In this document: positions 8,012 to 53,080 of the stretch, in pieces
How positions within the stretch are numbered: the first letter of the stretch is position 1
Layout: each line of letters starts with the position of its first letter
IMG/VR virus record: IMGVR_UViG_3300047539_000055
Origin: a virus
Taxonomy: Duplodnaviria; Caudoviricetes
DNA: 64,000 bases
Direction: 5' to 3' (one strand)
Notes under the pieces: generated by a model
What the model saw: the letters and a program-made list of their open reading frames with translations, nothing else
What the model was told of the DNA's origin: nothing
Database searches by the model: none
Made by a program: the position numbers and the translations under genes

Positions 8012-8028
8012 TAAAGCGGAGTGAAATA

Positions 8029-10516: not shown

Positions 10517-10545
10517 TTGACAAATACGTTTAGATGGTTGATAAT
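10517..10545 (+). promoter_or_regulatory. Sigma70-type promoter of gp46
   Basis: TTGACA-17 bp-GATAAT, 6 nt before ATG 10552. Confidence 0.6.
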
Positions 10546-10551
10546 AAGAGC

Positions 10552-17770: not shown

Positions 17771-18622
17771 TTACTCCATAAGGAAAAGATATTGATTTTG
17801 CTGAGCGAGTTTGTTTCGCAAAAACGCCCAATGTTGCATCATGTTGGGATATCCAGCAGATACCGCGATTTGTTTAATATCGCTGAGACAACGAAGTTCA
17901 TCAATGATTGGCTCTGGAAGTGTGGTTTTGGTAATAAGTTCTGCGCGTGTATATGCATAATGTGTTGCTGTGATACCATCTTTTCTCCCTCGTTCAAGAG
18001 AAAGAAATATACTAAATAATCGTTCTACTGCAAAGGTATAATATGGTAAAACTTTATTAGGGCCATAATTGGCGCTTTTTTGATACAGCATTTCAATATC
18101 TTTTGGATTATTGTTAACAGATTCTAAAAAATTGTTGACAAATTTTATATACTTGCCCCAAAATTTGTGATTGCCAACAAAAAAATTACATAGAGAAAAG
18201 GTATTACAATCCATATATAAAGAACCTAAGTCAATTTTGGATGCTTCTGTGATGTTTCGTTGTAATAAACTCAATAGACCGGGATGGCAGTTTTCTCCAT
18301 GTTGAATTGTTCCGGGGAAAATAGCTTCCACGATAGGGACCGGATTTATAAAATAAACATCACATAAATTTGTCTGTTGAGACGCTTTAACCCAATCAAG
18401 AAATTGACCACCAGTAATATTGGATTTCTTTTCAAATTTTGGACTTACTAAACCAAAATAATCTAGGTTTTTAGTTAAATTAGAATTGTATGCACATTCA
18501 AATATTGGATATTCTCGAAGTTGTGGCTGATCATTAGATAGATTATCCCAAAGATCAAATCCTGCTCCGAGTGAAGAAAGCTGTGATTGTTCATAACAAA
18601 TTTTGTATAATTTAGTTTTCAT
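17771..18622 (-). CDS. Putative glycosyltransferase-like protein
   Basis: LREYP, YFGLVSPKF, CNFFVG, FAVERLFS motifs. Confidence 0.4.
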   Translation of the reverse strand: MKTKLYKICYEQSQLSSLGAGFDLWDNLSNDQPQLREYPIFECAYNSNLTKNLDYFGLVSPKFEKKSNITGGQFLDWVKASQQTNLCDVYFINPVPIVEAIFPGTIQHGENCHPGLLSLLQRNITEASKIDLGSLYMDCNTFSLCNFFVGNHKFWGKYIKFVNNFLESVNNNPKDIEMLYQKSANYGPNKVLPYYTFAVERLFSIFLSLERGRKDGITATHYAYTRAELITKTTLPEPIIDELRCLSDIKQIAVSAGYPNMMQHWAFLRNKLAQQNQYLFLME

Positions 18623-19406
18623 TTTCTAATTTTTCAAACATCCATCCTTTGTGTGATTTTCTTCTACCATATAAACAATTAAATACATGCGCTATATTAA
18701 GATCATGTTCTTTAGCAAATTGACGAGGAATGTCTGAGATTATTTTTATACCATCGAGCGAAATAGCTTTAAATTTCAATTTTTTTATTTTTGCTGTAGA
18801 AAGTTTTTGTTTGTGAGTATACGAGAATTTTCTATCTTTTTGCGCTAACGACATTTTTTGCTTGGTTTGAAGGTTACGGTGAGTACCAAAATTAGGATTA
18901 TCTGAACCAAATTTTCCGAATATTGGATTATTTTTTCCAGAACGAGAAATAGACATTTCTATTTTTGTTTCTGTGGTATGTTTTTTGCCCTTCATCCATG
19001 TTTGTTTTCCTTTTCTACTTTTAGACATTTTTTCTTTTGATTCTGTTCGGTGATTTTTTCCAAACATTGGATGACTTGATCCACTATTCATTTTTGCTAT
19101 TTCAATAGAAAATTGAGTTCGTAATAATTCATAATCGTGACTCGTAATATGTAATTTTCGGCTACTTTTATTAATGCTCATCATATGCCAAGCATAAATC
19201 ATTTTTGCTCTAAATTTTTCATCTACAAATTTAATCAATAATTTATGGCATATATAGTGTTCTCTTGCTGTTAAGAAAACCATATTGTCTTTGGTATTAC
19301 TGCCACCCATACATTTGGGAATAATATGATGATCCTCTTTATAACCAAGTGGACAGTCTTTTTGTCGTTTTTCAATGATTTTGTAATAAATTTTACTATA
19401 ATCCAT
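18612..19406 (-). CDS. HNH homing endonuclease with NUMOD3 repeats
   Basis: EDHHIIPKCMGGSN...LTAREHYICH; repeated H..E.K.KMS units. Confidence 0.88.
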   Translation of the reverse strand: MDYSKIYYKIIEKRQKDCPLGYKEDHHIIPKCMGGSNTKDNMVFLTAREHYICHKLLIKFVDEKFRAKMIYAWHMMSINKSSRKLHITSHDYELLRTQFSIEIAKMNSGSSHPMFGKNHRTESKEKMSKSRKGKQTWMKGKKHTTETKIEMSISRSGKNNPIFGKFGSDNPNFGTHRNLQTKQKMSLAQKDRKFSYTHKQKLSTAKIKKLKFKAISLDGIKIISDIPRQFAKEHDLNIAHVFNCLYGRRKSHKGWMFEKLENEN

Positions 19407-19499: not shown

Positions 19500-21008
19500 A
19501 TGCAATATAATCAAATTATCAATGAAGCGGGATCGCGCGGCCTATTCGTAAGGACACAAAATGCGGCGGCTGGAGACACAGTAATATTCACAAATGATCA
19601 AGGTCAACAAATTACAGCCGTTGGTAACGCTGTTTTTCCAGTTGATGGCTTCTTTTTTGAGAATGATACTGTTAATAATCTTCCTTCGCAAGCACGAAAG
19701 TTAGCTCCAGTAGAGCAAAAAAAGCTTTTGAAAACTGGATTTCAAAAGGTTTCAGAAGCTTTAGAACAATATCAAATTAAAATGAAGATTAAGAGTCAAA
19801 ATTGGCATGTGGTTAACAATAATGGCCGCGCAGCTTTGGTAACTCTTTGGAAAAAGGACAATGGAGATTTGGTAGGTTTTATCAAGTTATTTAACATAAA
19901 AAGTGCGGGTGCCGTCCCATTCTTTTGGTCTAATAGTGATTTTGCTCGTGATACTACATATTCTATTCGTGATAATGCGCAACAGAAAACTGATCTAAAT
20001 CTTAAACCAAGCACTGTTGTTGGAATTGGAGAACGACTTACGGTTGAAGAAGCTGTAGAACAAATTGGAGTGAATATCTCCACACATACAGAAATACCAG
20101 CAGATGTTCGTAAACAAATAATTGGCCTTATTAAAAATGTTGAATCTGGATTTGCTACCCCAGTTGCTAATGCCGCCGCTAATGCCACATCATTTGAAGT
20201 TGATCTTGGTGAAACTGCTGCTCCAATTGCTCTATTGACAGGTCATTTTATTTCAGGATCGTATCGGGAAGTTGAAGAACAATTGCTCAAACCACAAGGT
20301 TCAAGCTGGCGCAAAATCAAAACTTTTACTTTTCCAATGAGCGGAACTGAGGCGTTGGTTGATAGTTATCTTAATCTAAGTAAAGATGTACATATTGGAA
20401 TTAGCAGTAAAAATAGCACTGGTGGGGCATCTGCCAGCGTTACAAGTTTGACTTCTGTTATTGAAAAGAATCCTGAGCGATTTGTAGACCTTCAGAGTGA
20501 GAAAAAGTATAAGTATCTATTCAACATTATGAATTTGATCAAGGATAAATCTGCCGAAGATGGACCGCTGGAATTGGGTGTGCTTTATAAGATTATCACA
20601 AAGGATGAAAAAAAAGAGATAAAGAATGCCATTGCAGATTTGAATATAGATAAGAAATACCTTTCAAAGACTTTGAAATCCTTATTGAAAAATTCAATTT
20701 ATAATCCTGTCACAGTTAACCAAAATTATACAATTGGTTATCACTTATTAACAACTGTCGCATTTTTAGTTACTGCACATTTAAATAAGAATTCAAATTT
20801 AGTAACGGCATTCTTCAAGGAAATCCTAAGTCGTTCTAATATGATTCAAGTAAAGACTAAGATGAAAATAGTTGATACTGGGGCTTATTTTTCTAATTTT
20901 GAAGTCATGTGGCCACCAGCATTTCCTGGAAAAGTTCAATTTTTTGCTCAAAAAAATTATTCTGCCAGCGCAAAACCAGGTGGAAAGATTTGTTTCAAAA
21001 TTGGCTAA
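19500..21008 (+). CDS. Hypothetical late (possibly virion-internal) protein
   Basis: Start moved to ATG 19500, 5 nt after TAAATA; N-terminus MQYNQIINEA. Confidence 0.65.
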   Translation: MQYNQIINEAGSRGLFVRTQNAAAGDTVIFTNDQGQQITAVGNAVFPVDGFFFENDTVNNLPSQARKLAPVEQKKLLKTGFQKVSEALEQYQIKMKIKSQNWHVVNNNGRAALVTLWKKDNGDLVGFIKLFNIKSAGAVPFFWSNSDFARDTTYSIRDNAQQKTDLNLKPSTVVGIGERLTVEEAVEQIGVNISTHTEIPADVRKQIIGLIKNVESGFATPVANAAANATSFEVDLGETAAPIALLTGHFISGSYREVEEQLLKPQGSSWRKIKTFTFPMSGTEALVDSYLNLSKDVHIGISSKNSTGGASASVTSLTSVIEKNPERFVDLQSEKKYKYLFNIMNLIKDKSAEDGPLELGVLYKIITKDEKKEIKNAIADLNIDKKYLSKTLKSLLKNSIYNPVTVNQNYTIGYHLLTTVAFLVTAHLNKNSNLVTAFFKEILSRSNMIQVKTKMKIVDTGAYFSNFEVMWPPAFPGKVQFFAQKNYSASAKPGGKICFKIG

Positions 21009-21202
21009 GATTCAAATTTCCTTAGCATTTCTTTCCGAATAATTTCCGCTGTATTATTCCAAGCAATTCTCTCGGTTGCTTCATAAAATCCCGCTGATAG
21101 AAGAACGCCTCCATTGCCATTATAAATTCCATAACTGGAACCAAAATCATCTACCTTGGCATTCGGATATATTTTAAGAACAAATTCTTTTGTATTCTTC
21201 AT
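21005..21202 (-). CDS. YPDA/KLES-family protein (array A)
   Basis: TKEFVLKIYPNA...MLRKFES. Confidence 0.85.
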   Translation of the reverse strand: MKNTKEFVLKIYPNAKVDDFGSSYGIYNGNGGVLLSAGFYEATERIAWNNTAEIIRKEMLRKFES

Positions 21203-21402
21203 GACTCAAACTTCTCCAGCATTTCTTGCAGAATAACTTCTGCTGCATGTTTCCAAGCAATAGTTGCGGTGCTTTCAAATTCATATGCTGATAAAAGCAT
21301 TTTGGTTTTTCTATCAAATATACCCCATCCGACATTATTTATTAAGGTATTTTCTGAATAGGCAGTTGGATATATTGAAAGAACAAATTTCTTATTTGTC
21401 AT
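21199..21402 (-). CDS. YPDA/KLES-family protein (array A)
   Basis: MTNKKFVLSIYPTA...MLEKFES. Confidence 0.85.
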   Translation of the reverse strand: MTNKKFVLSIYPTAYSENTLINNVGWGIFDRKTKMLLSAYEFESTATIAWKHAAEVILQEMLEKFES

Positions 21403-21608
21403 GATTCCAATTTCCTCAACATTAGCAAACGAATCTCTTCAGCCGCCGATTCCCATGCTAAATCATCTTCAAAAAACGCTGAACTAATCCATCTTCCAGA
21501 GATTGTTGGCTCTGAAACAACACGTCTCAGGGTTTCGTCTCTATGCCAAACCATGATTTGAATCTCAGCATCGGGATAAATTGATAATACAAATTCTTTA
21601 TCGGTCAT
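21399..21608 (-). CDS. YPDA/KLES-family protein (array A)
   Basis: MTDKEFVLSIYPDA...MLRKLES. Confidence 0.85.
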   Translation of the reverse strand: MTDKEFVLSIYPDAEIQIMVWHRDETLRRVVSEPTISGRWISSAFFEDDLAWESAAEEIRLLMLRKLES

Positions 21609-21832
21609 GATTCCAATTTTCTCAGAAATCGTTTTTGAATTGCTGCTTTATACCAAGCCAAGGCTTTTTTCCAAGCTTCGGCGCGAGTTGCACCATATGA
21701 AACGGAAATACCATTTACAGATACGCGAAATCTTATTTCCGGGCTTCCGTTGTAGGCTAGACCCCAGAGTCCATTTAATTTGTAGGAATGAACTTTGGGA
21801 TACACTTGCAAAATTATTTGGCGTGTTGTCAT
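21605..21832 (-). CDS. YPDA/KLES-family protein (array A)
   Basis: ILQVYPKV...EAWKKA...FLRKLES. Confidence 0.8.
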   Translation of the reverse strand: MTTRQIILQVYPKVHSYKLNGLWGLAYNGSPEIRFRVSVNGISVSYGATRAEAWKKALAWYKAAIQKRFLRKLES

Positions 21833-22020
21833 ACTGTTCTATTTCTCCATTCAATAGTGCAAAGACCATAACCAGCATCTTTGGGCAGGTGTCGTTTGCA
21901 CCAGTTTTTGATAATAGATTCAGCTTTTTTGTCGTTTGCGACCCCTTCGACAGAACCATCGGGCAACATGACAAGTAAACCGAATTCGCCTTTCTCAACA
22001 ATTGCTGTTCCTTGATTCAT
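21829..22020 (-). CDS. Unrelated small hypothetical protein inside array A
   Basis: Start moved to MNQGTA at a TAATG overlap. Confidence 0.6.
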   Translation of the reverse strand: MNQGTAIVEKGEFGLLVMLPDGSVEGVANDKKAESIIKNWCKRHLPKDAGYGLCTIEWRNRTV

Positions 22021-22205
22021 TAGCTTTCCAATTTCCTCAACATCATTTTTTGAATACCTTCCCAAGCACTTTGCCATGCTTGTTTTTCTGTTGGGAGTAA
22101 ATATGACATATAAATCATACTTTTTTCCGCAATTAGATATCCAGCACCAAATTCTTCTACCCTTGCATATGGATAAATGGCAAGCACTGATTTTTTAGCG
22201 GTCAT
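22020..22205 (-). CDS. YPDA/KLES-family protein (array A)
   Basis: MTAKKSVLAIYPYA...MLRKLES. Confidence 0.85.
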   Translation of the reverse strand: MTAKKSVLAIYPYARVEEFGAGYLIAEKSMIYMSYLLPTEKQAWQSAWEGIQKMMLRKLES

Positions 22206-22399
22206 GATTCAAACTTCCTCAACATTTCAACTTTGATGTTGTCGGCTGCATTTTTCCAAGCAATGGCTTCGGAGTTTTCGATATGTTTACTTGACAGCAC
22301 TCTCGCGTAACCTGGACTTGGGATAAAAATACCATAAGAATCTCCACCCACTAGAAAAGCCTCTGGATATATTGAAAGAACAAGTTGTTTATTTGTCAT
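22202..22399 (-). CDS. YPDA/KLES-family protein (array A)
   Basis: MTNKQLVLSIYPEA...MLRKFES. Confidence 0.85.
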   Translation of the reverse strand: MTNKQLVLSIYPEAFLVGGDSYGIFIPSPGYARVLSSKHIENSEAIAWKNAADNIKVEMLRKFES

Positions 22400-22599
22400 G
22401 ATTCCAACTTCTCCAACATATTCTTGTAAATTTTTTCTTTTAGTCGTTTCCATACTTCTTTTTTGCTTTTGCCAGTGACAAAAAATATATCAGAAAATCC
22501 ATAATACCGTCCATTAGTATTATTGCCACTATCATAATTACAATAGGCATTTGGTTCTATAGCAAGAACCAATTTCTTATCGGAGATAGACCCCGCCAT
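22396..22599 (-). CDS. YPDA/KLES-family protein with altered start (array A)
   Basis: (MAGSI)SDKKLVLAIEPNA...MLEKLES. Confidence 0.6.
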   Translation of the reverse strand: MAGSISDKKLVLAIEPNAYCNYDSGNNTNGRYYGFSDIFFVTGKSKKEVWKRLKEKIYKNMLEKLES

Positions 22600-22900
22600 A
22601 AATGTTGACTGCCTTCCCCCAACCATAGTTGGCATCAAAAATATTTCCACGAGAATGTTTTGCTGGTGCGTTCCAAGACGCGGCCTTGAGAATATTTCCC
22701 GTAGCCTTGTCAACAAAGCAATAAACACTTCGGCTACCAGACCCCGTAGTTATGAGTTTGAAATTCTTGCTTCCCTCTTTCATACTAATAACTGGGGGAG
22801 TGAGTATTGAAAATTCCTTGGCATAATGGAGAAGTGTTTCGCCTTGAACCTTGGCTACAAAACCGTTTACGCGAGTAATCATTTCTGGTGTTGCTGTCAT
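22577..22900 (-). CDS. Hypothetical phage early protein
   Basis: SVYCFVDKATGNILKAASWNAPAK; AGGAG RBS. Confidence 0.7.
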   Translation of the reverse strand: MTATPEMITRVNGFVAKVQGETLLHYAKEFSILTPPVISMKEGSKNFKLITTGSGSRSVYCFVDKATGNILKAASWNAPAKHSRGNIFDANYGWGKAVNIYGGVYLR

Positions 22901-22911
22901 TTCAATTCTCC

Positions 22912-23079
22912 TTAGCGAATAACAATTTTTGATTCATCCTTGCGAACATAAACAAAAAACTTGCTGTGCGTGATCACAGCGCGAAGTCCACGAAGTTCCA
23001 TAAGAGCATTGCGAACGGAATAATCTGAAGTGTTTTTTGAAGTCTCTTCAATCAGTTCATTCAACTTTTCGTCGGTCAT
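22912..23079 (-). CDS. Small hypothetical protein
   Basis: MTDEK start at an ATGA overlap. Confidence 0.55.
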   Translation of the reverse strand: MTDEKLNELIEETSKNTSDYSVRNALMELRGLRAVITHSKFFVYVRKDESKIVIR

Positions 23080-23351
23080 AAATACTCTTCGCCCCAATCG
23101 TCAACATAATCTTCAGAACAATCATCAATTTCATCTTCCCCAACAAGATCGTCGTTTTCCGTGGCAGATTCGGAATTCAAATCCAGATCATCGTTATAAT
23201 CCCAATCGTCACCATAGACGGATACGCCATAATAATCGTCATAGTCAAAATCACCATCAGCTTCAAATTCAACATCGTCAGCGATGGAATCGGCATAGAC
23301 AGTTCTGAGTTCTTCACGAAGAGTTATTTCACTGCGTTTTGCACGAGTCAT
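23076..23351 (-). CDS. Highly acidic small protein
   Basis: About 34 D/E in 91 aa. Confidence 0.65.
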   Translation of the reverse strand: MTRAKRSEITLREELRTVYADSIADDVEFEADGDFDYDDYYGVSVYGDDWDYNDDLDLNSESATENDDLVGEDEIDDCSEDYVDDWGEEYL

Positions 23352-23584
23352 TATGCCTTCTCCACACGACTGAGATAGAATGTGTCTGTTACGCCATGCG
23401 CAGAATCACATTCGGTCTTCTGCCAAGTAACTTTGATCAAACCCTTTACGATTAAAGAGTTACGCGCATTAACTCGGCGGTTTCCAAAAGACTTATGCTT
23501 GATAATACCATGCTCAATGCTGGTATATCCTTTGCGCTGAATCTCTTGAAGAATCTCATTCTCGGTTTTGTTCAATTTTATCAT
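23351..23584 (-). CDS. Small hypothetical protein
   Basis: TAATG-coupled ORF. Confidence 0.6.
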   Translation of the reverse strand: MIKLNKTENEILQEIQRKGYTSIEHGIIKHKSFGNRRVNARNSLIVKGLIKVTWQKTECDSAHGVTDTFYLSRVEKA

Positions 23585-23796
23585 TATGCTTTTTCCTGAA
23601 CAGCTACCAGATTGCCATCAGTCCACGAATAATTGACAGAATCTTCTGACTCTTCAATTTCAAAGCCAGTCATTAGCATCCACCGAGAAAATAGATTCTC
23701 CGCATAAGCCGTTGCTTCCGATGCCGTTGCAAACCGCAAGCTATTATAGCTCGGTTTAGATTCTCCAGATACCTTGACAGCAACTTTCAAACTCAT
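23584..23796 (-). CDS. Small hypothetical protein, first gene of leftward early operon
   Basis: GAGG RBS before MSLKVAVK. Confidence 0.65.
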   Translation of the reverse strand: MSLKVAVKVSGESKPSYNSLRFATASEATAYAENLFSRWMLMTGFEIEESEDSVNYSWTDGNLVAVQEKA

Positions 23797-23821
23797 ATTA
23801 TCCTCTCTCAATTACAAATAT

Positions 23822-23850
23822 AGTATATCAAATCCATAGGCAAAAGTCAA
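23822..23850 (-). promoter_or_regulatory. Sigma70-type early promoter (leftward)
   Basis: TTGACT-17 bp-TATACT on the minus strand. Confidence 0.75.
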
Positions 23851-23901
23851 CTAAAATATTATTTATCTAAGTCCTTTATTTTCAATAAGATATCTTTTAT
23901 C

Positions 23902-23930
23902 TTGACTTTATTAGAGAAGTTTGGTATGAT
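23902..23930 (+). promoter_or_regulatory. Sigma70-type early promoter (rightward)
   Basis: TTGACT-17 bp-TATGAT, 6 nt before ATG 23937. Confidence 0.75.
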
Positions 23931-23936
23931 TGAAAT

Positions 23937-25169
23937 ATGAAAACTAAGGAAAAGGTTACCGCAAAGCCAACTCGTTCGTTTCTGCCAGTAGACCTCAAGC
24001 CTATCAAAACACTGCATTTCCGTGGCGCTGGTGCCCCTTATATTGGTGAAGTAGAACCAGATTGGCCCATTTTAGAAGCGCAGAATAAATGGACTCGTAC
24101 CGAGTATGAGAAGTGTGTTAGTATGGCGCTAAATTGGTATTCTCATACGCAGGACGACAAGGAAATTATCTCCCTTGGTTTTGCAGCGCTTAACCTTAGC
24201 GGTCATTTTCCAGAATTGCTCGTCACACTCGATAATTCCACATTGACATTTTCTGTTACTGCCGCCCGATTGCTTCGCATGGCGCATAATGGATTGTTTC
24301 TGCGTTTCCGTGAAAGGCGTTTCATCGTCCGAGAGATTCGCAAGTGTGTCAACAACCAAAAAGAAATTCTTGAAAAGGTTGAAGGGCAATCCAAACCACA
24401 GATTCAAGATTACATCAATGCTCGTGTTCATCTTGTAAAGGGCGAGATTGATCAGTATTTTGATACCTTCATTGACGAAGACTATACATATGGTGGATTG
24501 AAGGTGAAAGACACCAACAATAAAAAGCCATTGCAACTTGTTGCGGCGATTCTCAAAGACCCAACAACTTCTGTTCCTGCAAATCGTACATCCGATTTGA
24601 TTGATTATTGCCAGAAGTATTTGACCGAATATCAAAGTGCTTTGGTTGGCAAACCGCCATCTCTTGCGGAAGCATACGCCCCGCTTGGTAAGCGTCATAT
24701 CAAGGCGGCAATTCAATGGTGGGAGCAAGCTATTACCGATATCAACGCATACTGTCAACAGAAACAGAGTATGCGAAAGACTCGTAAGCGTAAGATTCAA
24801 CCGCCAATCAAGATCGTTGGCAAGCTGAAGTATCTCAAGGTATTTCCTGGGTTGAAACTAGAAAGCATTGAGCCAACTCAAGTGTTGAAGTGCGCAGAAC
24901 TTTGGGTTTACAACACGAAGTTGAGAAAGTTGGGCAGATATGTTGCTATCAATGATGGATCGTTTGAAGTCAGGGGAACGCGATTGATCAATCTTGACAA
25001 GGGCAAGTGTGTTCAGAAGACTCTTCGCAAGCCAGCCGAACAATTGAAGGAGTTTGGTAACTACACGAAGGTTGGTGCGCTCAAGTGGTTCAATAACATT
25101 CGTGCAGTGGCAACACCGTTGCGTGAAGCAATTAGCGGAGATTGTATTCTTTTGAAGGGTATTAGATGA
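23937..25169 (+). CDS. Hypothetical phage protein heading array B
   Basis: 410-aa ORF with basic C-terminal domain (ELWVYNTKLRKLG...KTLRKP). Confidence 0.75.
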   Translation: MKTKEKVTAKPTRSFLPVDLKPIKTLHFRGAGAPYIGEVEPDWPILEAQNKWTRTEYEKCVSMALNWYSHTQDDKEIISLGFAALNLSGHFPELLVTLDNSTLTFSVTAARLLRMAHNGLFLRFRERRFIVREIRKCVNNQKEILEKVEGQSKPQIQDYINARVHLVKGEIDQYFDTFIDEDYTYGGLKVKDTNNKKPLQLVAAILKDPTTSVPANRTSDLIDYCQKYLTEYQSALVGKPPSLAEAYAPLGKRHIKAAIQWWEQAITDINAYCQQKQSMRKTRKRKIQPPIKIVGKLKYLKVFPGLKLESIEPTQVLKCAELWVYNTKLRKLGRYVAINDGSFEVRGTRLINLDKGKCVQKTLRKPAEQLKEFGNYTKVGALKWFNNIRAVATPLREAISGDCILLKGIR

Positions 25170-25408
25170 ACTTACGAAGTGTCAAAATCGTAAGAGCGGC
25201 ATGGCCCAAGGCCATATGTATGACCAAAAAAGAATATATGGAATTATCTAGCCCACGCCCAGAATGGGCCGCACCGCTTCGTGCCCCATATTATATTTAT
25301 GATTCTGATTTTTCGGGTGCAATTGGTTGGGGGCCAGATATCAAATCCGCGTGGAAAGAGGCGGCTGATTGGGTCAATAAGGAAATGATGAGAAAGTTGG
25401 AATCATGA
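25166..25408 (+). CDS. YPDA/KLES-family protein (array B)
   Basis: IVRAAWPKA...AWKEAA...MMRKLES. Confidence 0.8.
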   Translation: MNLRSVKIVRAAWPKAICMTKKEYMELSSPRPEWAAPLRAPYYIYDSDFSGAIGWGPDIKSAWKEAADWVNKEMMRKLES

Positions 25409-25644
25409 CAACATTGGAAGCAAAACGATTTGTGCTGTCCATCTATCCAAAAGCATTTCTTGGATTGGTCGCCGGTAATACTATCGTATTTCATGATGAT
25501 ATCCCACTCGAAAAAATCCACTGTTATACTGAATATTTGGGTTACGCATATGATTCTAATCAGCATAATAAGATAGTTAAACAAGCATGGATAGACGCAG
25601 CAGAAAATATTCAAAAAGAAATGTTGAGAAAGCTGGAATCATGA
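25405..25644 (+). CDS. YPDA/KLES-family protein (array B)
   Basis: FVLSIYPKA...MLRKLES. Confidence 0.85.
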   Translation: MTTLEAKRFVLSIYPKAFLGLVAGNTIVFHDDIPLEKIHCYTEYLGYAYDSNQHNKIVKQAWIDAAENIQKEMLRKLES

Positions 25645-25838
25645 CCAATAAAATTTTTGTCAAAAAGATTTATCGCAAAGCATTTTGTCGGTTAGACAGT
25701 TATTTTCCGACAACATATTATGTATATACAGGAGAAAATGATGATTATGTAATATCATGGGGACATTCTCCATTACAAGCTTGGTATAGAGCAAAAGACC
25801 TTGTAAATGAAAAGATTATGGCTAAGTTGGAATCATGA
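25641..25838 (+). CDS. YPDA/KLES-family protein (array B)
   Basis: MTNKIFVKKIYRKA...MAKLES. Confidence 0.85.
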   Translation: MTNKIFVKKIYRKAFCRLDSYFPTTYYVYTGENDDYVISWGHSPLQAWYRAKDLVNEKIMAKLES

Positions 25839-26044
25839 CAAATAGAAAACTTGTTCTTCTAATGTATTCAGATGCAGTATGCCATGACGAGCCAGCAGAT
25901 GATCCTCGTGAAGATAGATATTTTGTTTATAGTGAGAGTGCCGCTTTTTCTCTTTACCTTGGGTCAAGTAGAACTAGAATAGAAGCATGGAAGGAAGCCG
26001 CCGATTTTGTCAATAAGCGTGCGATAAATATGTTAGCATCATGA
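25835..26044 (+). CDS. YPDA/KLES-family protein (array B)
   Basis: MTNRKLVLLMYSDA...INMLAS. Confidence 0.85.
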   Translation: MTNRKLVLLMYSDAVCHDEPADDPREDRYFVYSESAAFSLYLGSSRTRIEAWKEAADFVNKRAINMLAS

Positions 26045-26292
26045 CAGAATATCAAGCCAAAAAATTCGTGAAATCAATGTATCCAGATGCAATTTGTGTG
26101 GATCATTCTCTAATTTATGAAGGTGTAGAAACTTTGTGGCGAGTGATAGAAGTTGATCACGATAGACATAGCCGTTGGTATAAAATGGAAATTGGTGCGA
26201 GTAGTACGAGTGAAAATCAAGCGTGGATTAATGCTGTGCCACTTTTGAAAGATTTTATTCTCTGTCAGATGGAAAAGAAGTTTGGATTATGA
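26041..26292 (+). CDS. YPDA/KLES-family protein (array B)
   Basis: FVKSMYPDA...AWINA...MEKKFGL. Confidence 0.8.
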   Translation: MTEYQAKKFVKSMYPDAICVDHSLIYEGVETLWRVIEVDHDRHSRWYKMEIGASSTSENQAWINAVPLLKDFILCQMEKKFGL

Positions 26293-26501
26293 CACACAAA
26301 CAGCTAGTTCAAAAGTCATATCCAAACGCACAGTTGCGTAAGGAAATGTATAACTTTGAAGGAAAAGCATATCCACTGTATCAGGTTGATCAAGGTGATA
26401 CTAATGTCTATATAAGTAATTGGACAGACACTCCGCTAATGGCATGGGATGCCGCATGGATAGAAGTTCAAGAAAGAATGTTGAGAAAGTTGGAATCATG
26501 A
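26289..26501 (+). CDS. YPDA/KLES-family protein (array B)
   Basis: MTHKQLVQKSYPNA...MLRKLES. Confidence 0.85.
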   Translation: MTHKQLVQKSYPNAQLRKEMYNFEGKAYPLYQVDQGDTNVYISNWTDTPLMAWDAAWIEVQERMLRKLES

Positions 26502-26719
26502 CAAATAAACAACTTGTTCTTCTAATGTATCCAGATGCGGAGTGTGAATTGGATGACTCTAATGACTCAATATATTACCGCACAGATAATTATATTGTGT
26601 GTTATCCACTTTCGACTAATTGGGAATTCGAACTTGGTCGCGGAAAAACTAGAATTTGTGCGTGGAAGAATGCGGCAAGTTATGTCAATAAGCGTGTGAT
26701 AAATATGTTGGAATCATAA
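26498..26719 (+). CDS. YPDA/KLES-family protein (array B)
   Basis: MTNKQLVLLMYPDA...INMLES. Confidence 0.85.
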   Translation: MTNKQLVLLMYPDAECELDDSNDSIYYRTDNYIVCYPLSTNWEFELGRGKTRICAWKNAASYVNKRVINMLES

Positions 26720-26727
26720 GGAGTAAA

Positions 26728-26943
26728 ATGACAAAGCAACCAGAAATTGAAAATATCGAAGAAAGAAAACTTGTGCGTTCTTTACACAAAACAGCACATT
26801 GTCGTAGAACAGAAGATGGCGGATTTCATATTTCTTATAAAGGTAAAGATGGTAAAGAAATTTCGCTTGGCCATAGAGCAGAGACTCGTACAGAAGCATG
26901 GGGTAATGCGGCAAAAAAGATTGATAAGGAAATATCGGAATAA
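26728..26943 (+). CDS. Divergent YPDA/KLES-family protein (array B)
   Basis: RKLVRSLHKTA...EAWGNAAKKI; own AGGAG RBS. Confidence 0.7.
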   Translation: MTKQPEIENIEERKLVRSLHKTAHCRRTEDGGFHISYKGKDGKEISLGHRAETRTEAWGNAAKKIDKEISE

Positions 26944-27146
26944 TGAATAACAACAAACATTTCGTTCGAGAAATTATTCCGTCTGCTTTTTGTGTTGAAG
27001 TCGTGTCTACATTCATAATCTATGGCTTTGATGCAGAAAACAGACAATATGTTATTGGACATAGTGCATGTTCAGAAGAAGATGCATGGGAACAAGTGGC
27101 GGAAACCTTCCGTCAAAAAATGTTGGCGAAATTGGAATCAGAATGA
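26943..27146 (+). CDS. YPDA/KLES-family protein (array B)
   Basis: KHFVREIIPSA...MLAKLESE. Confidence 0.8.
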   Translation: MNNNKHFVREIIPSAFCVEVVSTFIIYGFDAENRQYVIGHSACSEEDAWEQVAETFRQKMLAKLESE

Positions 27147-27349
27147 ATCCTCGCAATATAGTGTTGAGTTCTTATCCACAGGCAGTTTGTAATGAAATCG
27201 CTGGACAGACCAGTTCCTATTTTTTGATCCACGATATAGGATCAATGAGACAAGATTTGATTGGTTATAGTATGGTTAGCGAAAATGATGCTTGGGAACA
27301 CGCCGCAGATGTTATTGGTAAAAGAATGTTGGCACAGTTGGAGTGGTGA
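27143..27349 (+). CDS. YPDA/KLES-family protein (array B)
   Basis: MNPRNIVLSSYPQA...MLAQLEW. Confidence 0.8.
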   Translation: MNPRNIVLSSYPQAVCNEIAGQTSSYFLIHDIGSMRQDLIGYSMVSENDAWEHAADVIGKRMLAQLEW

Positions 27350-27564
27350 TGGACGAAGATAATCGTACAACTAAAGAACGAGTGTTAGCTTTGTATCCAA
27401 ATGCAGTATGTAAAACAAAATCAGAAACTTCGGCTGGAGTCAATCGTTGGACTATTTGGAGCGATGATGATTGGATTGCTAATAGTTATTTAAGCGAAGA
27501 ACATGCATGGAAGTGGGCGCTAGATTTAACAAATCGCGAAATTCTTCAAAAATTTAGAGATTAA
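27349..27564 (+). CDS. YPDA/KLES-family protein (array B)
   Basis: TKERVLALYPNA...ILQKFRD. Confidence 0.8.
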   Translation: MDEDNRTTKERVLALYPNAVCKTKSETSAGVNRWTIWSDDDWIANSYLSEEHAWKWALDLTNREILQKFRD

Positions 27565-27588
27565 CAGTAATTGGAGGGAACAAACTAA

Positions 27589-27804
27589 GTGCCGAAAAAT
27601 GAACAGGTGTCAATTCGTGGGAAGGTTATAAAGACTCTTCCTAATACAACATGGTTAGTTGAAATTCCCGGCGATCAGCAAGTCACCGCGTATTTGGGTG
27701 GAAGATTGCGCAAAAACAACATTCGTATTGAACCAGGCGATGAAGTAGCTCTTGAGTTGAGTCCATATTCTTTGGAACTCGCCAGAATTGTGTATCGTTT
27801 TTGA
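27589..27804 (+). CDS. infA: Translation initiation factor IF-1
   Basis: 71 aa; GKVIKTLPN...AYLGGRLRKNNIRIEPGDEVALELSPYSLELARIVYR; GGAGG RBS, GTG start. Confidence 0.93.
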   Translation: MPKNEQVSIRGKVIKTLPNTTWLVEIPGDQQVTAYLGGRLRKNNIRIEPGDEVALELSPYSLELARIVYRF

Positions 27805-28025
27805 TGACCGATAAAGAGCAAGTTCTAAATATATACCCAGAAGCAGAAATACATCATGATTGGAAAAAAATCTGTTATTATAGGTGTAAAGGCAAAGGGA
27901 TATACATCAAAGGAAAATGGCTGTTCCTTTGCCCCGATTCAAATATATATGTTTCTAATGATGAAATATGGGCTGAAGGTTGGAAAATCATTCAATGCGA
28001 AATGCTCAAGAAGTTGGAATCATGA
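27804..28025 (+). CDS. YPDA/KLES-family protein (array B)
   Basis: MTDKEQVLNIYPEA...MLKKLES. Confidence 0.85.
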   Translation: MTDKEQVLNIYPEAEIHHDWKKICYYRCKGKGIYIKGKWLFLCPDSNIYVSNDEIWAEGWKIIQCEMLKKLES

Positions 28026-28276
28026 CACCAGAACAAAGAGTAAAACTCGTTTATCCAGAAGCGATGCTTCGTCATTGTTGGGTAAAGTTACCAACAAAAT
28101 GGGATTGGTATATTGATTGTGCTAATTCTCCATTAGCTTTTGCTGGAGAACGATTCGTCATACATATTGTGGCTGGTAACAAATTGTTGGCATACGGCGG
28201 AAAATATGAAACTCCACTATGGCGTAGAGCATGGAAATCAATTGAAAAAGAAATGCTCAAGAAGTTGGAATCATGA
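28022..28276 (+). CDS. YPDA/KLES-family protein (array B)
   Basis: MTPEQRVKLVYPEA...MLKKLES. Confidence 0.85.
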   Translation: MTPEQRVKLVYPEAMLRHCWVKLPTKWDWYIDCANSPLAFAGERFVIHIVAGNKLLAYGGKYETPLWRRAWKSIEKEMLKKLES

Positions 28277-28455
28277 CAGATAAAAAATTTGTGATTGGTG
28301 TATATCCACATGCTTATTGTTCAAGACAGTGGCAAGGATTTTTTATCATGGAATATCAAAAGGTATTATCTCATGCATGTATTCTTGAAGAAGATGCATG
28401 GCTTTCAGCAAAATTGATTATCAATCATATAATGTTGGAAAAGTTGAAATCATGA
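28273..28455 (+). CDS. YPDA/KLES-family protein (array B)
   Basis: MTDKKFVIGVYPHA...MLEKLKS. Confidence 0.85.
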   Translation: MTDKKFVIGVYPHAYCSRQWQGFFIMEYQKVLSHACILEEDAWLSAKLIINHIMLEKLKS

Positions 28456-28667
28456 CTGCTAAAGAAAATGTTCTGAATAATTATCCACTGGCAAGAAGTT
28501 GCTATGTTACTTCTGAAAATAAGCCAACTTATTCTGTGATTGCGCCTGAAAAAACTGGAAGTCTTATTTGGGATATGTATCTTGGTTGCGCGTATTCGGA
28601 AGAAGCTGTTTGGGAATCAGCTTGGGAATATGTTCAAATTCGGATGTTACAAAAGTTGGAATCATGA
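28452..28667 (+). CDS. YPDA/KLES-family protein (array B)
   Basis: MTAKENVLNNYPLA...MLQKLES. Confidence 0.85.
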   Translation: MTAKENVLNNYPLARSCYVTSENKPTYSVIAPEKTGSLIWDMYLGCAYSEEAVWESAWEYVQIRMLQKLES

Positions 28668-28879
28668 CAGATAAAGAGTTTGTATTATCCATTTATCCTC
28701 GCGTATATTGTAACCAAGAATACATAGGAAATACACTATATTACACGGTATATGCTACAAGAAAAGGTCATCATGCTTCCATTGTAACTTTTGCAGAAAA
28801 AGGTAAAACCTTGGATGAAATGTGGGGAAATGCAAAAGAAAAAATCCTTCATAAAACATTACAGGTTTTTGAAAAATGA
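28664..28879 (+). CDS. YPDA/KLES-family protein (array B)
   Basis: MTDKEFVLSIYPRV...LQVFEK. Confidence 0.85.
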   Translation: MTDKEFVLSIYPRVYCNQEYIGNTLYYTVYATRKGHHASIVTFAEKGKTLDEMWGNAKEKILHKTLQVFEK

Positions 28880-29073
28880 CAGATGAAAAGTTTGTAAAAA
28901 GAATATATCCGAGTGCTTATTGTGTAATAAAACGGTATGAACCTACATTACAATGCTGTCATATAGTAGAATATCAAAATGTGATATCTTCTGTGATGGA
29001 CACCGAAGAGAATGCTTGGTATTCAGCAAAGAAATATATTAATCATAAAATGATGAGTTTATTGGAATCATGA
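28876..29073 (+). CDS. YPDA/KLES-family protein (array B)
   Basis: MTDEKFVKRIYPSA...MMSLLES. Confidence 0.85.
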   Translation: MTDEKFVKRIYPSAYCVIKRYEPTLQCCHIVEYQNVISSVMDTEENAWYSAKKYINHKMMSLLES

Positions 29074-29267
29074 CAGACAAAAAATTTGTAATCAAAATAT
29101 ATCCCGATGCTCATTGTGTAACAAATTATGGTATTGATGGTGCTGAATATTTCAAAATAATAGAACACAGTCATTCATTATCTTGTGTAATGGACACCGA
29201 AGAAAATGCTTGGTATGAAGCAAAAAATGTTATCAATCGTAGAATGTTGAAAAAGTTGGAGTCATGA
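29070..29267 (+). CDS. YPDA/KLES-family protein (array B)
   Basis: MTDKKFVIKIYPDA...MLKKLES. Confidence 0.85.
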   Translation: MTDKKFVIKIYPDAHCVTNYGIDGAEYFKIIEHSHSLSCVMDTEENAWYEAKNVINRRMLKKLES

Positions 29268-29476
29268 CCACAAAAGAAAATGTTTTGAATATCTACCCGA
29301 AGGCAGAACTTACTTGTATTGGCAACAATAAAGTATTTTGCCTCCGAAGCCCACATAGTACATCAAAATTATTAACATGGACTAATATTATAGGCACAGG
29401 TAGTACGGAAGAAAAAGCGTGGGAATCGGCTTGGAAAATAATTCAAAATGACATGCTTACAAAGTTGGAATCATGA
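29264..29476 (+). CDS. YPDA/KLES-family protein (array B)
   Basis: MTTKENVLNIYPKA...MLTKLES. Confidence 0.85.
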   Translation: MTTKENVLNIYPKAELTCIGNNKVFCLRSPHSTSKLLTWTNIIGTGSTEEKAWESAWKIIQNDMLTKLES

Positions 29477-29715
29477 ATTATGAAGAATCGGTCAAAGCAG
29501 TTTATTCAGATGCAAAGTGCTTCAAACCAGCCGCGCATATTATAATTCAAAACGATCCCATGTGGGGAGATTATTTCGTGTTTCATCGTCGTGAATACGG
29601 GAAAAAGTTTCACGAATTTGAAGTGTTGAGTAATCATTGTAAAACTGAAGAATTTGCTTGGAAAAATGCATGGGAAAAAATAGAACAAGCCATGCTTAGA
29701 AAGTTGGAATCATGA
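29473..29715 (+). CDS. YPDA/KLES-family protein (array B)
   Basis: MNYEESVKAVYSDA...MLRKLES. Confidence 0.85.
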   Translation: MNYEESVKAVYSDAKCFKPAAHIIIQNDPMWGDYFVFHRREYGKKFHEFEVLSNHCKTEEFAWKNAWEKIEQAMLRKLES

Positions 29716-29948
29716 CAGACAAAGAACAAGTTTTGAATGTATATCCCGATGCGAAAATGGAAAACGCGGCTCCCATGTGGATTGGGTGGGGTAGTAATTT
29801 TAGATGGTCTGTTAATATTGTTGATCAACTTCAGGGAAATAACTATCTCTCTACAATTTGCTATGGTGTAACAGAAAAAGAAGCATGGAAAAATGCTTGG
29901 AATGAAATTCAACAAATGATGCTCAGAAAGTTTGAAGATGAATTATAA
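29712..29948 (+). CDS. YPDA/KLES-family protein (array B)
   Basis: MTDKEQVLNVYPDA...MLRKFEDEL. Confidence 0.85.
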   Translation: MTDKEQVLNVYPDAKMENAAPMWIGWGSNFRWSVNIVDQLQGNNYLSTICYGVTEKEAWKNAWNEIQQMMLRKFEDEL

Positions 29949-30138
29949 AGAACAGGTGTTGGCAATCTATCCACATGCGAAAGCAGAATTCAGAATTTGT
30001 GTTTGGTTTTTGCTGGTAAGAAATGACAGAGATGAATGTGTATATGATCTTTGTGTTTGTGGTGATTCTGAAGAAAATGTTTGGAAAGGCGGTTGGGAAG
30101 TCATTGAACAAAGATTGTTGGCAAGGTTTGAATCATGA
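29938..30138 (+). CDS. YPDA/KLES-family protein (array B)
   Basis: MNYKEQVLAIYPHA...LARFES. Confidence 0.85.
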   Translation: MNYKEQVLAIYPHAKAEFRICVWFLLVRNDRDECVYDLCVCGDSEENVWKGGWEVIEQRLLARFES

Positions 30139-30365
30139 AATCATACAAAAACAAAGTTTTATCTGTGTATGGCCGAGCCGAAACTTGGGAAGATAATGAA
30201 TGTAGTTCGGTCACGCATTATCCTTGGCGAGTTCATTATTTGCAGACACCTGATGAGCGTTATACGATTCTTGGTTTTGGTTATACCGAAGCTGATGCGT
30301 GGAAATATGCGTGGAAAGTAATTGAAAAAGAAATGCTGTGGGAATTTGAAAATGATAGACTATAA
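30135..30365 (+). CDS. YPDA/KLES-family protein (array B)
   Basis: KNKVLSVYGRA...AWKYAWKVIEKEMLWEFE. Confidence 0.8.
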   Translation: MKSYKNKVLSVYGRAETWEDNECSSVTHYPWRVHYLQTPDERYTILGFGYTEADAWKYAWKVIEKEMLWEFENDRL

Positions 30366-30558
30366 AAAAAGAGTTCGGAAAATTTATCCAGAGGCAAATT
30401 CTGATCACCCTTTTTTCATTATTGGATATGGTGGATTTTATATATGGGAATCTCTGAAATATTTGAAATGTTTATCTTATGATACTTCTGAAATTCTTGC
30501 TTGGAAAAAAGCGTGGGAAAGAATAGAACAAATAACTTTGGAGAAATTTGAAGAATGA
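30352..30558 (+). CDS. YPDA/KLES-family protein (array B)
   Basis: MIDYKKRVRKIYPEA...LEKFEE. Confidence 0.8.
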   Translation: MIDYKKRVRKIYPEANSDHPFFIIGYGGFYIWESLKYLKCLSYDTSEILAWKKAWERIEQITLEKFEE

Positions 30559-30797
30559 CAGACAAAGAATTTGTAATATCAATTTATCCCGGTGCAAGAT
30601 ATACTTCTTGGTTTAATCTTCATGTAAAAGAATCAGGAATTGAAGTCATAGAAGATAATCAAATTTTATTTACTTTGGGCTGGGTGTTTAGGCTAAACAC
30701 CCAGCCGGGCTGGGTGTTTAGTCACGATGAGGGAAAGGCATGGAAAAATGCCAGAAAAATATTGGAAAAAGATATGCTGAGAAAGTTGGAATCATAA
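30555..30797 (+). CDS. YPDA/KLES-family protein (array B) with internal inverted triplication
   Basis: MTDKEFVISIYPGA...MLRKLES. Confidence 0.85.
   Translation: MTDKEFVISIYPGARYTSWFNLHVKESGIEVIEDNQILFTLGWVFRLNTQPGWVFSHDEGKAWKNARKILEKDMLRKLES
30677..30721. repeat. Direct-inverted-direct 14-15 bp triplication
   Basis: GGGCTGGGTGTTTAG-G-CTAAACACCCAGCC-GGGCTGGGTGTTTAG. Confidence 0.9.
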
Positions 30798-31018
30798 TGA
30801 CAGACAAAGAATTTGTGTTATCCATTTATGAAGATGCCAAGTATATTACTTGGCAATCAAATCGTCACAGTGGATCATCCAATGATTCCAGCATTGAACT
30901 AACTGACAATGGAAAATACCGTAGTATTGGATGGAACGCTGACGATATTGAAGAAAAAACTTGGTGGTATTGTAGAATAGATATTGAAAGAGAAATGTTG
31001 AGAAAATTGGAGTCATAA
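30797..31018 (+). CDS. YPDA/KLES-family protein (array B)
   Basis: MTDKEFVLSIYEDA...MLRKLES. Confidence 0.85.
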   Translation: MTDKEFVLSIYEDAKYITWQSNRHSGSSNDSSIELTDNGKYRSIGWNADDIEEKTWWYCRIDIEREMLRKLES

Positions 31019-31377
31019 TGAGCGAAGATGAAAAACTCGTAAGAACATATTGGCGAACTGTTGAGCCACATATCAAGGATAATGACAGTTACGCTCCTGA
31101 TTTATTCTGTCTTGATTTAAGCGGTGGTTTCCATGCTGCTCATAATGATCGGGAAAAAGAAAATGTATGGAAACAAGCCGCCATTTATACTTTGGAACGA
31201 CTCAAACTTCTGGAAGAACTTGACGAACAATTGAAATGGTTGAAAAATCTTGAAATGTATACAGAATACGAAGAAAAAGTAAGGGATCAGATAGTTCATA
31301 CAATAGAAGATAAAAAAAACCACAAATTGACTGGTATGACGATTGATCCAGCAACAAACCCAAATATTCCAAGGTAA
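31018..31377 (+). CDS. Possible divergent, C-terminally extended family member
   Basis: DEKLVRTYW...ENVWKQAA. Confidence 0.6.
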   Translation: MSEDEKLVRTYWRTVEPHIKDNDSYAPDLFCLDLSGGFHAAHNDREKENVWKQAAIYTLERLKLLEELDEQLKWLKNLEMYTEYEEKVRDQIVHTIEDKKNHKLTGMTIDPATNPNIPR

Positions 31378-38081: not shown

Positions 38082-38276
38082 ATGGAAGAATTAAAACCGT
38101 GTCCATTTTGCGGCGGTGAAGCAAGAGCATATCTTGGTTCTTATGCTGTTGGTTGGGTGCAATGCCTTGAATGTCGAGTAATAACACAGACATACAATAC
38201 CAAGGGCGAAGCAATTGAGATGTGGAATACAAGAGTGAAATCAAAGGAACAATATGAAATCAAAGAAATTTTCTAA
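38082..38276 (+). CDS. Lar-family restriction-alleviation-like zinc-finger protein
   Basis: ELKPCPFCGGEA...C..C...EAIEMWNTR. Confidence 0.75.
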   Translation: MEELKPCPFCGGEARAYLGSYAVGWVQCLECRVITQTYNTKGEAIEMWNTRVKSKEQYEIKEIF

Positions 38277-51204: not shown

Positions 51205-51254
51205 AATCAATAACTTACAATCATATTGACATTCCAGATCAAAACTGATATACT
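51205..51254 (+). promoter_or_regulatory. IHF-consensus site plus sigma70-type promoter of array C
   Basis: AATCAATAACTTA (WATCAANNNNTTR); TTGACA-17-TATACT. Confidence 0.7.
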
Positions 51255-51269
51255 CATTCTAGGTAAAAT

Positions 51270-52443: not shown

Positions 52444-52444
52444 T

Positions 52445-53031: not shown

Positions 53032-53080
53032 GTAGTAGATGAAAATTGGTGGGAAAACAGGTTTTGAAAAGGAGCAACAA

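Follow-up and report, generated by a model that had tools for sequence, protein, structure and literature searches.

A stretch of 64,000 nucleotides from a virus of the Caudoviricetes (Duplodnaviria; IMG/VR record IMGVR_UViG_3300047539_000055), called the window throughout, contains 37 small paralogous genes, most of which stand in two divergent arrays and are chained to one another by a conserved coding junction. These genes probably represent a birth-and-death multigene family that is organised in translationally coupled operons and remodelled, whole gene by whole gene, at the conserved ends of its members; their products may form a library of binding proteins. The window lies in a 353,395-bp JGI metagenome contig (locus L114, 100% identity across 20 kb), and array-identical contigs were found in several soil metagenomes. 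The source is an uncultured soil jumbo phage, a distant relative of the phages PA5oct and Atu_ph07.

The family was defined by a profile search: 10 seed copies supplied the profile, which was run on all stop-to-stop open reading frames (ORFs) of the six frames of the window. At E<0.01 the search returned exactly 37 members, with all remaining frames at noise level. A preliminary description of this DNA had counted seven copies on the minus strand, 26 on the plus strand, three at 51.3 kb and one at 4305, and the profile recovered the same set:

4305-4538, plus strand: solo member of 77 amino acids (profile E=3.9e-11), TAATG-coupled to the gp47/SbcD-like gene at 4538-5557
21005-22599, minus strand: array L, seven members at 21005-21202, 21199-21402, 21399-21608, 21605-21832, 22020-22205, 22202-22399 and 22396-22599
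21829-22077, minus strand: unrelated 82-amino-acid ORF that interrupts array L and has no family profile match and no Pfam or PHROG match
25166-31018, plus strand: array R, 26 members, located by the profile with refined starts
Array R, plus strand, starts 1-13: 25166, 25405, 25641, 25835, 26041, 26289, 26498, 26728, 26943, 27143, 27349, 27804, 28022
Array R, plus strand, starts 14-26: 28273, 28452, 28664, 28876, 29070, 29264, 29473, 29712, 29938, 30135, 30352, 30555, 30797
51270-51473, 51470-51664 and 51664-51861, plus strand: array C, three members forming a window-specific clade (mutual identity 51-55%, support 0.94)
31018-31377, plus strand: 119-amino-acid gene, TAATG-coupled to the last member of array R and keeping only the E..VW..AA motif

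Together the 37 genes take up about 8 kb of the window. They encode proteins of 60-84 residues in units of 183-255 nt, and successive genes overlap by ATGA at 24 junctions, most others being TAATG or a start a few codons before the preceding stop; the chaining by ATGA or TAATG and the unit length of about 180-255 bp that had been read from the sequence are both borne out. The first copy of array R does start at 25166, as proposed, and has a WPKA head where other members have YPxA. Membership of the 119-amino-acid gene at 31018-31377 as a 38th copy is unproven: the profile aligns 14 of its residues at 3.9 bits, and it is possibly a degenerate relative.

The alignment reproduces the pattern of fixed ends and a variable core, with the consensus MT.K..VL.IYP.A at the head and E..AW..A...I...ML.KLES at the tail. 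The tryptophan alone is invariant across members, and the V, Y, P and A positions are nearly so. Paralogs are 25-51% identical in pairwise comparison, and in five other samples the array of the window recurs at 99.9-100% identity. The hypervariability of the cores is best read as a difference between paralogs, because these are old, and not as rapid change.

Whole-gene turnover was seen in strain V, which shares 85-97% DNA identity with the window and is represented by contigs L117, L120, L121, L123, L124-L127 and L130. Gene-by-gene protein mapping, the boundaries of high-scoring segment pairs and the junction sequences gave five events:

Event a, order swap: 28664-28876-29070 in the window reads 28876-28664-29070 in strain V, the ORFs keeping their own tails; crossover exactly at the start of ATGACAGA; four independent assemblies
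Event b, extra 72-amino-acid member in strain V between the orthologues of 27143 and 27349: crossover inside AGTTGGAGT of both tails; four contigs
Event c, extra 65-amino-acid member in strain V before the orthologue of 29938: crossover not pinned to a motif, the copy aligning to 29938 itself; three contigs
Event d, window gene 26498 absent from strain V: crossover inside GTTGGAATCAT; one contig shown (L124)
Event e, chimera of the 26041 head and the 26289 body, with a gene-length between them deleted: crossover at the YP.A motif; one contig shown (L124)

The ORF chain is intact after all five events, and the four crossovers that can be pinned (a, b, d and e) all fall within a conserved end motif of 8-13 nt. 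The gains and losses bounded by junctions that had been expected among relatives are thus found, as whole-gene gain, loss, swap and chimera. Assembler k-mers are much longer than these repeats, and the variants turn up again in independent assemblies; misassembly is therefore an unlikely source of them. Strain V also shows shifts in core length, namely a 10-residue tandem duplication in the 25641 orthologue (L124 234-461) and a 10-residue deletion in the 30555 orthologue (L117 3197-3409), both in the region of the predicted sheet.

Between the window and strain V, protein identity is 100% for a homologue of the translation initiation factor IF-1 embedded in array R, 92% for the downstream 119-amino-acid gene and 49-100% for the family orthologues. 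The Nei-Gojobori ratio of nonsynonymous to synonymous divergence (dN/dS) was 0.23 over the first 14 codons, 0.68 in the cores and 0.39 over the last 22 codons, and pN exceeded pS in four cores (25835, 27804, 29712 and 30135). Three genes have a dS of 0.44-0.64 as against about 0.1 in flanking genes, which points to their replacement by more distant alleles and not to hypermutation in place. In gene 25166, a core patch of about 45 nt has been replaced between the strains while its flanks are about 95% identical; because all four bases change, and not adenines only, this patch bears no signature of a diversity-generating retroelement (DGR).

A scan of viral contigs with a 16-mer of the junction returned chiefly chance single matches and two records that are real relatives: G001 (IMG/VR UViG_3300024331_000007, 359,890 bp) and G002, a 19.5-kb fragment. 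Their flanking proteins are 62-66% (G001) and 46-48% (G002) identical to those of the window, and both keep the layout p560, array L, promoter gap, p410, array R with IF-1, p1155. Copy number differs widely. The profile has at least 85 matches in G001 and 19 in G002, compared with 37 members in the 64-kb window; within the regions fetched, array R holds 26 copies in the window, about 58 in G001 and at least 11 in G002, and array L holds 7, 14 and 7, respectively. In a maximum-likelihood tree of 118 members, 11 one-to-one sister pairs that link the window with G001 are supported. Of the eight such pairs in array R, seven are colinear; one pair connects the window's array L with array R in G001, and the solo member at 4305-4538 has its supported sister in the same place in G001, beside a Metallophos gene. 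The number of genes between anchors differs greatly (2 versus about 17 for one anchor pair). Window-specific and G001-specific clades consist of neighbouring genes, and the nearest paralog is the adjacent gene for 13 of the 37 members in the window (2 expected, p<0.0005) and for 15 of 71 in G001 (2 expected). Because sister pairs are colinear, counts between anchors differ and nearest paralogs are adjacent, the arrays consist of an old colinear backbone overlaid by lineage-specific local duplication, loss and occasional relocation; gene order is neither static nor freely shuffled.

The preliminary description had seen in the locus an expandable array whose cassettes are shuffled. Its first half stands, in that units turn over at end motifs between strains. 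Rapid or programmed shuffling finds no sign in the data, given the low identity of the paralogs, the seven pairs colinear with G001 and the array that is identical in five samples. The repeat-spacer look of the locus and the replaced core patch in 25166 could still suggest a programmed generator of diversity, such as a shufflon, a DGR or cassette switching, that varies the array within a population on a short time scale. Such a device would be at odds with substitutions that hit all four bases, with breakpoints at several motifs instead of one site, and with the same old paralogs and stable array, and we consider it extremely improbable. The window ORFs that were scanned (not every small ORF was) yielded no integrase, invertase, site-specific recombinase or reverse transcriptase, in agreement with the earlier remark that no dedicated recombinase was visible.

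The junction is conserved as DNA. The 15-mer AAGTTGGAATCATGA has 10 exact copies in the window, including every one listed before; with up to two mismatches there are 24, against 0.48 expected, a number reached in 0 of 100 shuffles. The window, G001 and G002 have one and the same consensus junction, ATG-yTG-ArA-AAG-TTG-GAA-TCA-TGA-CAG-ATA-AAG-AAt-TTG, while the genes shared by the three phages are only about 65-68% identical in DNA. In the K-L-E-S tail, 19 of 27 lysine codons are AAG, a codon used for 18-33% of the lysines in the family's cores and in large genes (p=8e-5), and 22 of 24 leucine codons are TTG, compared with a background of 21-30% (p=4e-10). It had been asked whether synonymous sites at the junction are conserved beyond the needs of protein and ribosome binding. 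Conservation does exceed the needs of the protein at the wobble positions of AAG and TTG, though not in the rest of the tail: the ATGA overlap dictates TCA as the serine codon, and GAA is used as in the background.

The same tail extends to genes outside the family:

51861-54516, plus strand: eight unrelated small genes chained to array C, four encoding membrane proteins and four belonging to a second soluble (GDW-type) family

All eight bear an (F/V)L.K(L/F)E(S/Q) tail together with the DNA motif AGAAAG(T/C)T(T/G)GA, at most nine codons from the stop. The second soluble family has three copies in G001 (219271-220080), two of them with FL..LE-type tails. The shared stretch is too short to separate common descent from convergence.

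Tail, ATGA overlap and head could together be a selected, portable cassette boundary within coding sequence, at once re-initiation signal and recombination site, by which any ORF that gains it can be captured and moved in the manner of PeSL or integron cassettes. The main support for this reading is the occurrence of one tail peptide and its DNA on the eight genes of at least two unrelated families, and the tails retained by the second family in G001 agree with it. So do the AAG and TTG bias, the junction DNA that stays identical in three otherwise diverged phages, and the four pinned strain-level breakpoints in these motifs. The hexamer TT(T/G)GAA sits directly before the next ATG even in two genes whose stop lies further downstream, which ties the motif to the downstream start. 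As a translation signal, the junction is unlike the sites of non-array genes, which are of GGAG type and lie 5-9 nt upstream: all it has of such a site is GGA at -6 to -4, and one junction in four reads TTTGAA, without GG. Members without visible coupling show an AAG bias at least as strong (8 of 10, as against 37 of 57 coupled ones), although uncoupled cases are few and some have GTGA overlaps. The IF-1 gene and one unrelated ORF lie within the arrays as captured genes might; IF-1 has its own spacer and ribosome-binding site and hence was not captured via the junction. The tail, finally, belongs to a C-terminal helix, so that peptide constraint contributes to its conservation. On balance a portable boundary of this kind is possible but rather doubtful.

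The setting of the arrays suggests how they are expressed. Arrays L and R diverge from a 125-bp gap at 23812-23936, and the following features frame them, promoters being matches to the sigma-70 consensus only:

23822-23930, both strands: back-to-back sigma-70-like promoters, TTGACT-17-TATACT on the minus strand (23850-23822) and TTGACT-17-TATGAT on the plus strand (23902-23930), each matching 10 of 12 consensus positions and with a TG extension
51227-51255, plus strand: putative sigma-70-like promoter of array C, TTGACA-17-TATACT, 11 of 12 consensus positions, 15 nt upstream of the array
22577-23811, minus strand: promoter-proximal genes of the leftward operon, a DUF7717 protein (22577-22900) and four small ORFs
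23937-25169, plus strand: 410-amino-acid protein (p410; phrog_11903) that opens the rightward operon, its stop overlapping the first family gene
27589-27804, plus strand: IF-1 homologue (infA; PF01176, E=2e-16) with its own GGAGG site and a GTG start, interrupting array R

With two neighbouring sites, at 23774-23801 on the plus strand (11 of 12) and 23885-23858 on the minus strand (10 of 12), the back-to-back pair makes up four of the six best sites between 19 and 32 kb. Inside the arrays, promoter-like sites number 49 compared with 47.4 in shuffles, and terminator-like sites 13 compared with 8.5. The T4-type late promoter TATAAATA is not enriched, and none lies in the arrays. We also considered the junction as a promoter, with ATGACA as its -35 element; there are three weak matches only and no enrichment. 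Because promoters stand at the array heads, genes overlap and internal promoters and terminators are not in excess, the arrays are probably long polycistronic, translationally coupled, early operons.

The genes at the heads of these operons are conserved. The DUF7717 protein and the ORF at 23584-23811 keep their positions in G001, and p410 heads the array in both G001 (62% amino acid identity) and G002 (46%). IF-1 holds its place in strain V (100%) and G001 (79%); the presence of a phage IF-1 amid dozens of re-initiation junctions may be no coincidence. Also promoter-proximal in the leftward operon is a very acidic ORF of 91 amino acids with runs of D and E (23076-23351). Directly upstream of array C lies the gene for a 581-amino-acid protein (49459-51204) that has an ADP-ribosyltransferase domain of the ART-PolyVal type at its N-terminus and a PARP-like stretch at its C-terminus. 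An HNH/NUMOD3 homing-type endonuclease gene (18612-19406), whose product ends in ..FEKLENEN, adjoins the arrays, and the 80 kb of G001 that were examined contain four matches to it. A few kilobases downstream of array R, a 64-amino-acid gene (38082-38276; L114 19013-19207) has a Pfam match to the Lar restriction-alleviation family (PF14354).

The window encodes several proteins of general recombination:

4538-5557, plus strand: gp47/SbcD-like phosphoesterase (PF00149), whose homologues in cultured phages are annotated as SbcD-like subunit
10534-12348, plus strand: gp46/SbcC-like recombination endonuclease subunit (phrog_77, E=8.7e-82)
41681-42259, plus strand: protein with an Endonuclease VII domain, a T4 gp49-type junction resolvase (PF02945, E=1.7e-21)

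In the scheme that we favour, arrays enlarge through local tandem duplication and are remodelled gene by gene, as the brief segments conserved at the ends of the genes recombine with one another. This recombination would be the work of general T4-type functions of the phage, or of template switching, without a dedicated recombinase. The ends are under purifying selection and the cores under relaxed or diversifying selection, and the gene chains would be expressed as early, translationally coupled operons. The proteins themselves may be a repertoire of binders built on one scaffold and aimed at varied targets in hosts or rivals, with anti-defence, antitoxin-like or take-over functions.

The family had gone unrecognised at first reading, and profile searches left it so. 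Eight window members and 10 metagenomic ones, multi-repeat forms included, gave nothing significant against Pfam and PHROGs. Against PDB sequences the profile found nothing below E=0.3 and no double-stranded RNA-binding domain (dsRBD), and a feature search of the ESM Atlas returned as its sole result a 0.78 chance-level match. Among cultured phages, the profile found no real member in PA5oct, Phosso, Atu_ph07 or SCTP-2, and neither megablast of 15 kb nor tblastn of two members matched any of 50,697 GenBank phage records. When the profile was run exhaustively against 1.84 billion representatives of 50%-identity clusters, 1,503 clusters passed E<=0.001 and 106 passed E<=1e-10, figures that overstate the number of carrier genomes because each phage can contribute dozens of diverged copies. 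In other phage contigs the domain occurs in naturally fused proteins of two to four repeats (P0066, P0112 and P0142 with two or three). Four repeats are fused in one 275-amino-acid protein of an unrelated, more GC-rich phage (L131 3488-4315, a contig of Logan SRR29476927), the gene lying between DHFR/thymidylate synthase and PhoH.

An AlphaFold2 model of member 29264-29473, made with a 130-sequence alignment, was confident (pLDDT 90.3, pTM 0.76). Its elements (H3-10, E15-19, E24-33, E36-46, H49-69) describe an alpha-beta-beta-beta-alpha topology, with a short N-terminal helix, an antiparallel sheet and a long C-terminal helix. In this model, the conserved head (K..VL.IYP.A) and tail (E..AW..A...I...ML.KLES) are the two helices, and the variable core is the sheet with its loops. 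A scaffold that presents a variable sheet face is the simplest structural reading. The prediction of a homodimer for one member scored 0.02 ("no answer") and is uninformative either way.

Structural neighbours were sought with VIA-align in an exhaustive, Foldseek-independent scan of 48,161 PDB representatives. The best 28 entries were all dsRBD folds (Z 4.9-6.5), from RNase III, Dicer, TRBP, PKR, Staufen, DRB4 and mitoribosomal mL44, and Foldseek on PDB and the ESM Atlas pointed to the same neighbours. HicB/UPF0150 domains ranked next (Z 4.1-4.7) and cover model residues 9-70 only, without the first helix. As far as the model goes, the relation to dsRBDs is one of fold resemblance and not of family membership, because Z is middling for a small and common topology.

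With dsRBDs, that of DHX9 among them, as the best structural matches, the members might be true dsRNA-binding proteins that hide or process the dsRNA formed by convergent and divergent phage transcripts. The motif spacing of dsRBDs is G.G.SKK.AK..AA..AL, and the family tail G.G.(T/S)EE.AW..A...I resembles it in spacing; the RNA-contact motifs themselves are absent, the start of the second helix being acidic (T/S)EE.AW and not basic KK.AK. The region of the beta1-beta2 loop, GPxH in dsRBDs, is hypervariable and has no conserved column. Isoelectric points range from 4.6 to 10.4 (median 6.3), and none of the 8 window and 10 metagenomic members matches PF00035 (dsrm) at E<=1. Because of this missing match, the replaced KK.AK, the variable loop and the mixed isoelectric points, canonical dsRNA binding is unlikely. 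Dozens of diverged copies are, moreover, hard to square with one generic ligand, and we hold a dsRNA-binding function of the arrays to be very unlikely.

Somewhat less remote, yet still unlikely in our view, is that the members act as antitoxin-like decoys, resembling the HicB N-domain or functionally Dmd, each against a different host toxin or abortive-infection effector. The HicB-like matches 2dsy (Z 4.7), 6g1c (Z 4.6) and 6u0i (Z 4.2) and rows 4 and 10 of the ESM Atlas result (TM 0.61) speak for such a role, yet they stand below the 28 dsRBD entries and omit the N-terminal helix, and no member matches a HicB family of Pfam at E<=1. Small size, promoter context and the diversity of copies would suit a counter-defence function. 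The arrays contain no HicA-like partner gene, the neighbours being other members, IF-1 and one ORF without a Pfam match. There is also a broader version of the portable boundary: as a selected element, the junction would give the next ORF its re-initiation and the general recombination system of the phage a patch of homology, so that whole ORFs, those of unrelated families included, could be captured, duplicated, swapped and exchanged between co-infecting jumbo phages. The arrays would then be an evolvable arsenal of dsRBD-fold binders, for instance antitoxin or anti-defence proteins. This is conceivable, but we would not expect it.

We return to the birth-and-death family remodelled at its conserved ends. 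Three outcomes had been set out beforehand as objections to a junction-bounded cassette array, namely that the family is a known domain, that gene order is static and that the junction codons are fully explained; each was examined, and none was found. Other points do weigh against our interpretation. All strain variants are known from short metagenome contigs, and a crossover homology of about 8-13 nt is short for classical homologous recombination. The conservation of the AAG-TTG wobble positions is not explained by birth and death alone and could not be tied statistically to coupling; a re-initiation signal, homogenisation by recombination, exchange between co-infecting phages and peptide constraint in the last helix may each account for the residue. 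The fold match is middling (Z<8) for a very common small topology, and a fairly small number of phage genomes may account for the roughly 1,500 metagenomic clusters. The functional part, the binder library, is an inference from architecture, promoter context and selection pattern.

The surrounding genome encodes a baseplate hub, the gp46/gp47-like recombination nucleases, a clamp loader, Endonuclease VII, PhoH, an ADP-ribosyltransferase and glycosyltransferases. The closest cultured relatives of the gp46-like protein are in Pseudomonas phage PA5oct (43% amino acid identity), Sinorhizobium phage Phosso, Agrobacterium phage Atu_ph07 and Salicola phage SCTP-2. Between the gp47-like and gp46-like genes, the stretch 5558-10497 encodes two proteins of about 820 amino acids without a Pfam or PHROG match, and its G+C content is raised (0.44-0.46 versus about 0.37 in the flanks). 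Fully enclosed in a C5 cytosine methyltransferase gene (42262-43041), on the same strand, is a second open frame of 249 codons (42278-43027).

Among known systems, the closest likeness is to the PeSL "mobile regulatory cassettes" of the hyperplastic regions of T4-type phages, which are intergenic units of promoter and terminator (Arbiol et al. 2010, PMC2839356; Comeau et al. 2014, PMC4122927). In both cases short boundary motifs flank small genes, and recombination between motifs inserts, deletes or replaces whole genes between close relatives; PeSL genes, too, are small and early, and mostly orphans. PeSL loci rely on general recombination without a site-specific enzyme, as we infer for the arrays. 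Insertions and deletions that end in a boundary motif, as in PeSL loci, were found in strain V with its four pinned crossovers. The intergenic sigma-70 promoter and stem-loop terminator of PeSLs were not found between array genes. Here there is no intergenic DNA; the boundary is itself coding (C-terminal helix, ATGA, N-terminal helix), so that the linkage is translational instead of transcriptional, and what lies between boundaries is mostly paralogs of one family, not unrelated orphans.

Integron arrays are likewise one-directional chains of small promoterless ORFs behind one upstream promoter that vary by whole cassettes. The present arrays differ in having no integrase among the scanned ORFs, no attC hairpins, coding boundaries and paralogous cassettes. 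A DGR is marked by a reverse transcriptase, a template repeat and adenine-specific changes; here no reverse transcriptase was found among the scanned ORFs, and the variable patches change at all four bases. The marks of tandem birth and death, by contrast, are all present: adjacent nearest paralogs, copy-number variation and ordered orthologues. On the protein side, dsRBDs (PF00035) share the predicted topology, the length of about 65-70 residues and the small residues spaced along the last helix; the family departs from them in its lack of a profile match, the acidic EE.AW, the variable loop, the mixed isoelectric points and its 37-85 copies per genome. The HicB N-domain/UPF0150 (PF15919, PF21748) likewise combines a three-stranded sheet and one helix in a small domain, but here there is no DNA-binding C-terminal domain, no adjacent HicA gene and no profile match.

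Large paralogue families are not usually expected in genomes as compact as those of phages; paralogue expansions, or "genomic accordions", are found in large eukaryotic DNA viruses. A multigene family with conserved termini and a variable centre is the MASP family of Trypanosoma cruzi (PMC2691823). Such families resemble ours in their conserved ends, variable core, clustering, birth and death and supposed interaction with the host. The differences are that the carrier here is a phage and that its products are tiny single-domain cytoplasmic proteins, encoded by polycistronic, coupled genes at 37-85 copies per approximately 355 kb. We found no description of a phage family of such size, or of this domain, in the open-access literature.

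The strain comparison gives a testable picture of how a phage can enlarge and reshuffle its repertoire of accessory proteins without breaking a coupled operon. If the members are counter-defence or take-over binders, they would amount to a large natural library on one small scaffold, with about 1,500 sequence clusters, and the junction would add a coding counterpart to the promoter/terminator cassettes of T4-type phages. Gene shuffling at boundary motifs is already known from PeSLs; what is new here is an uncharacterised domain family together with a junction that is conserved at wobble positions and crosses from one family to another.

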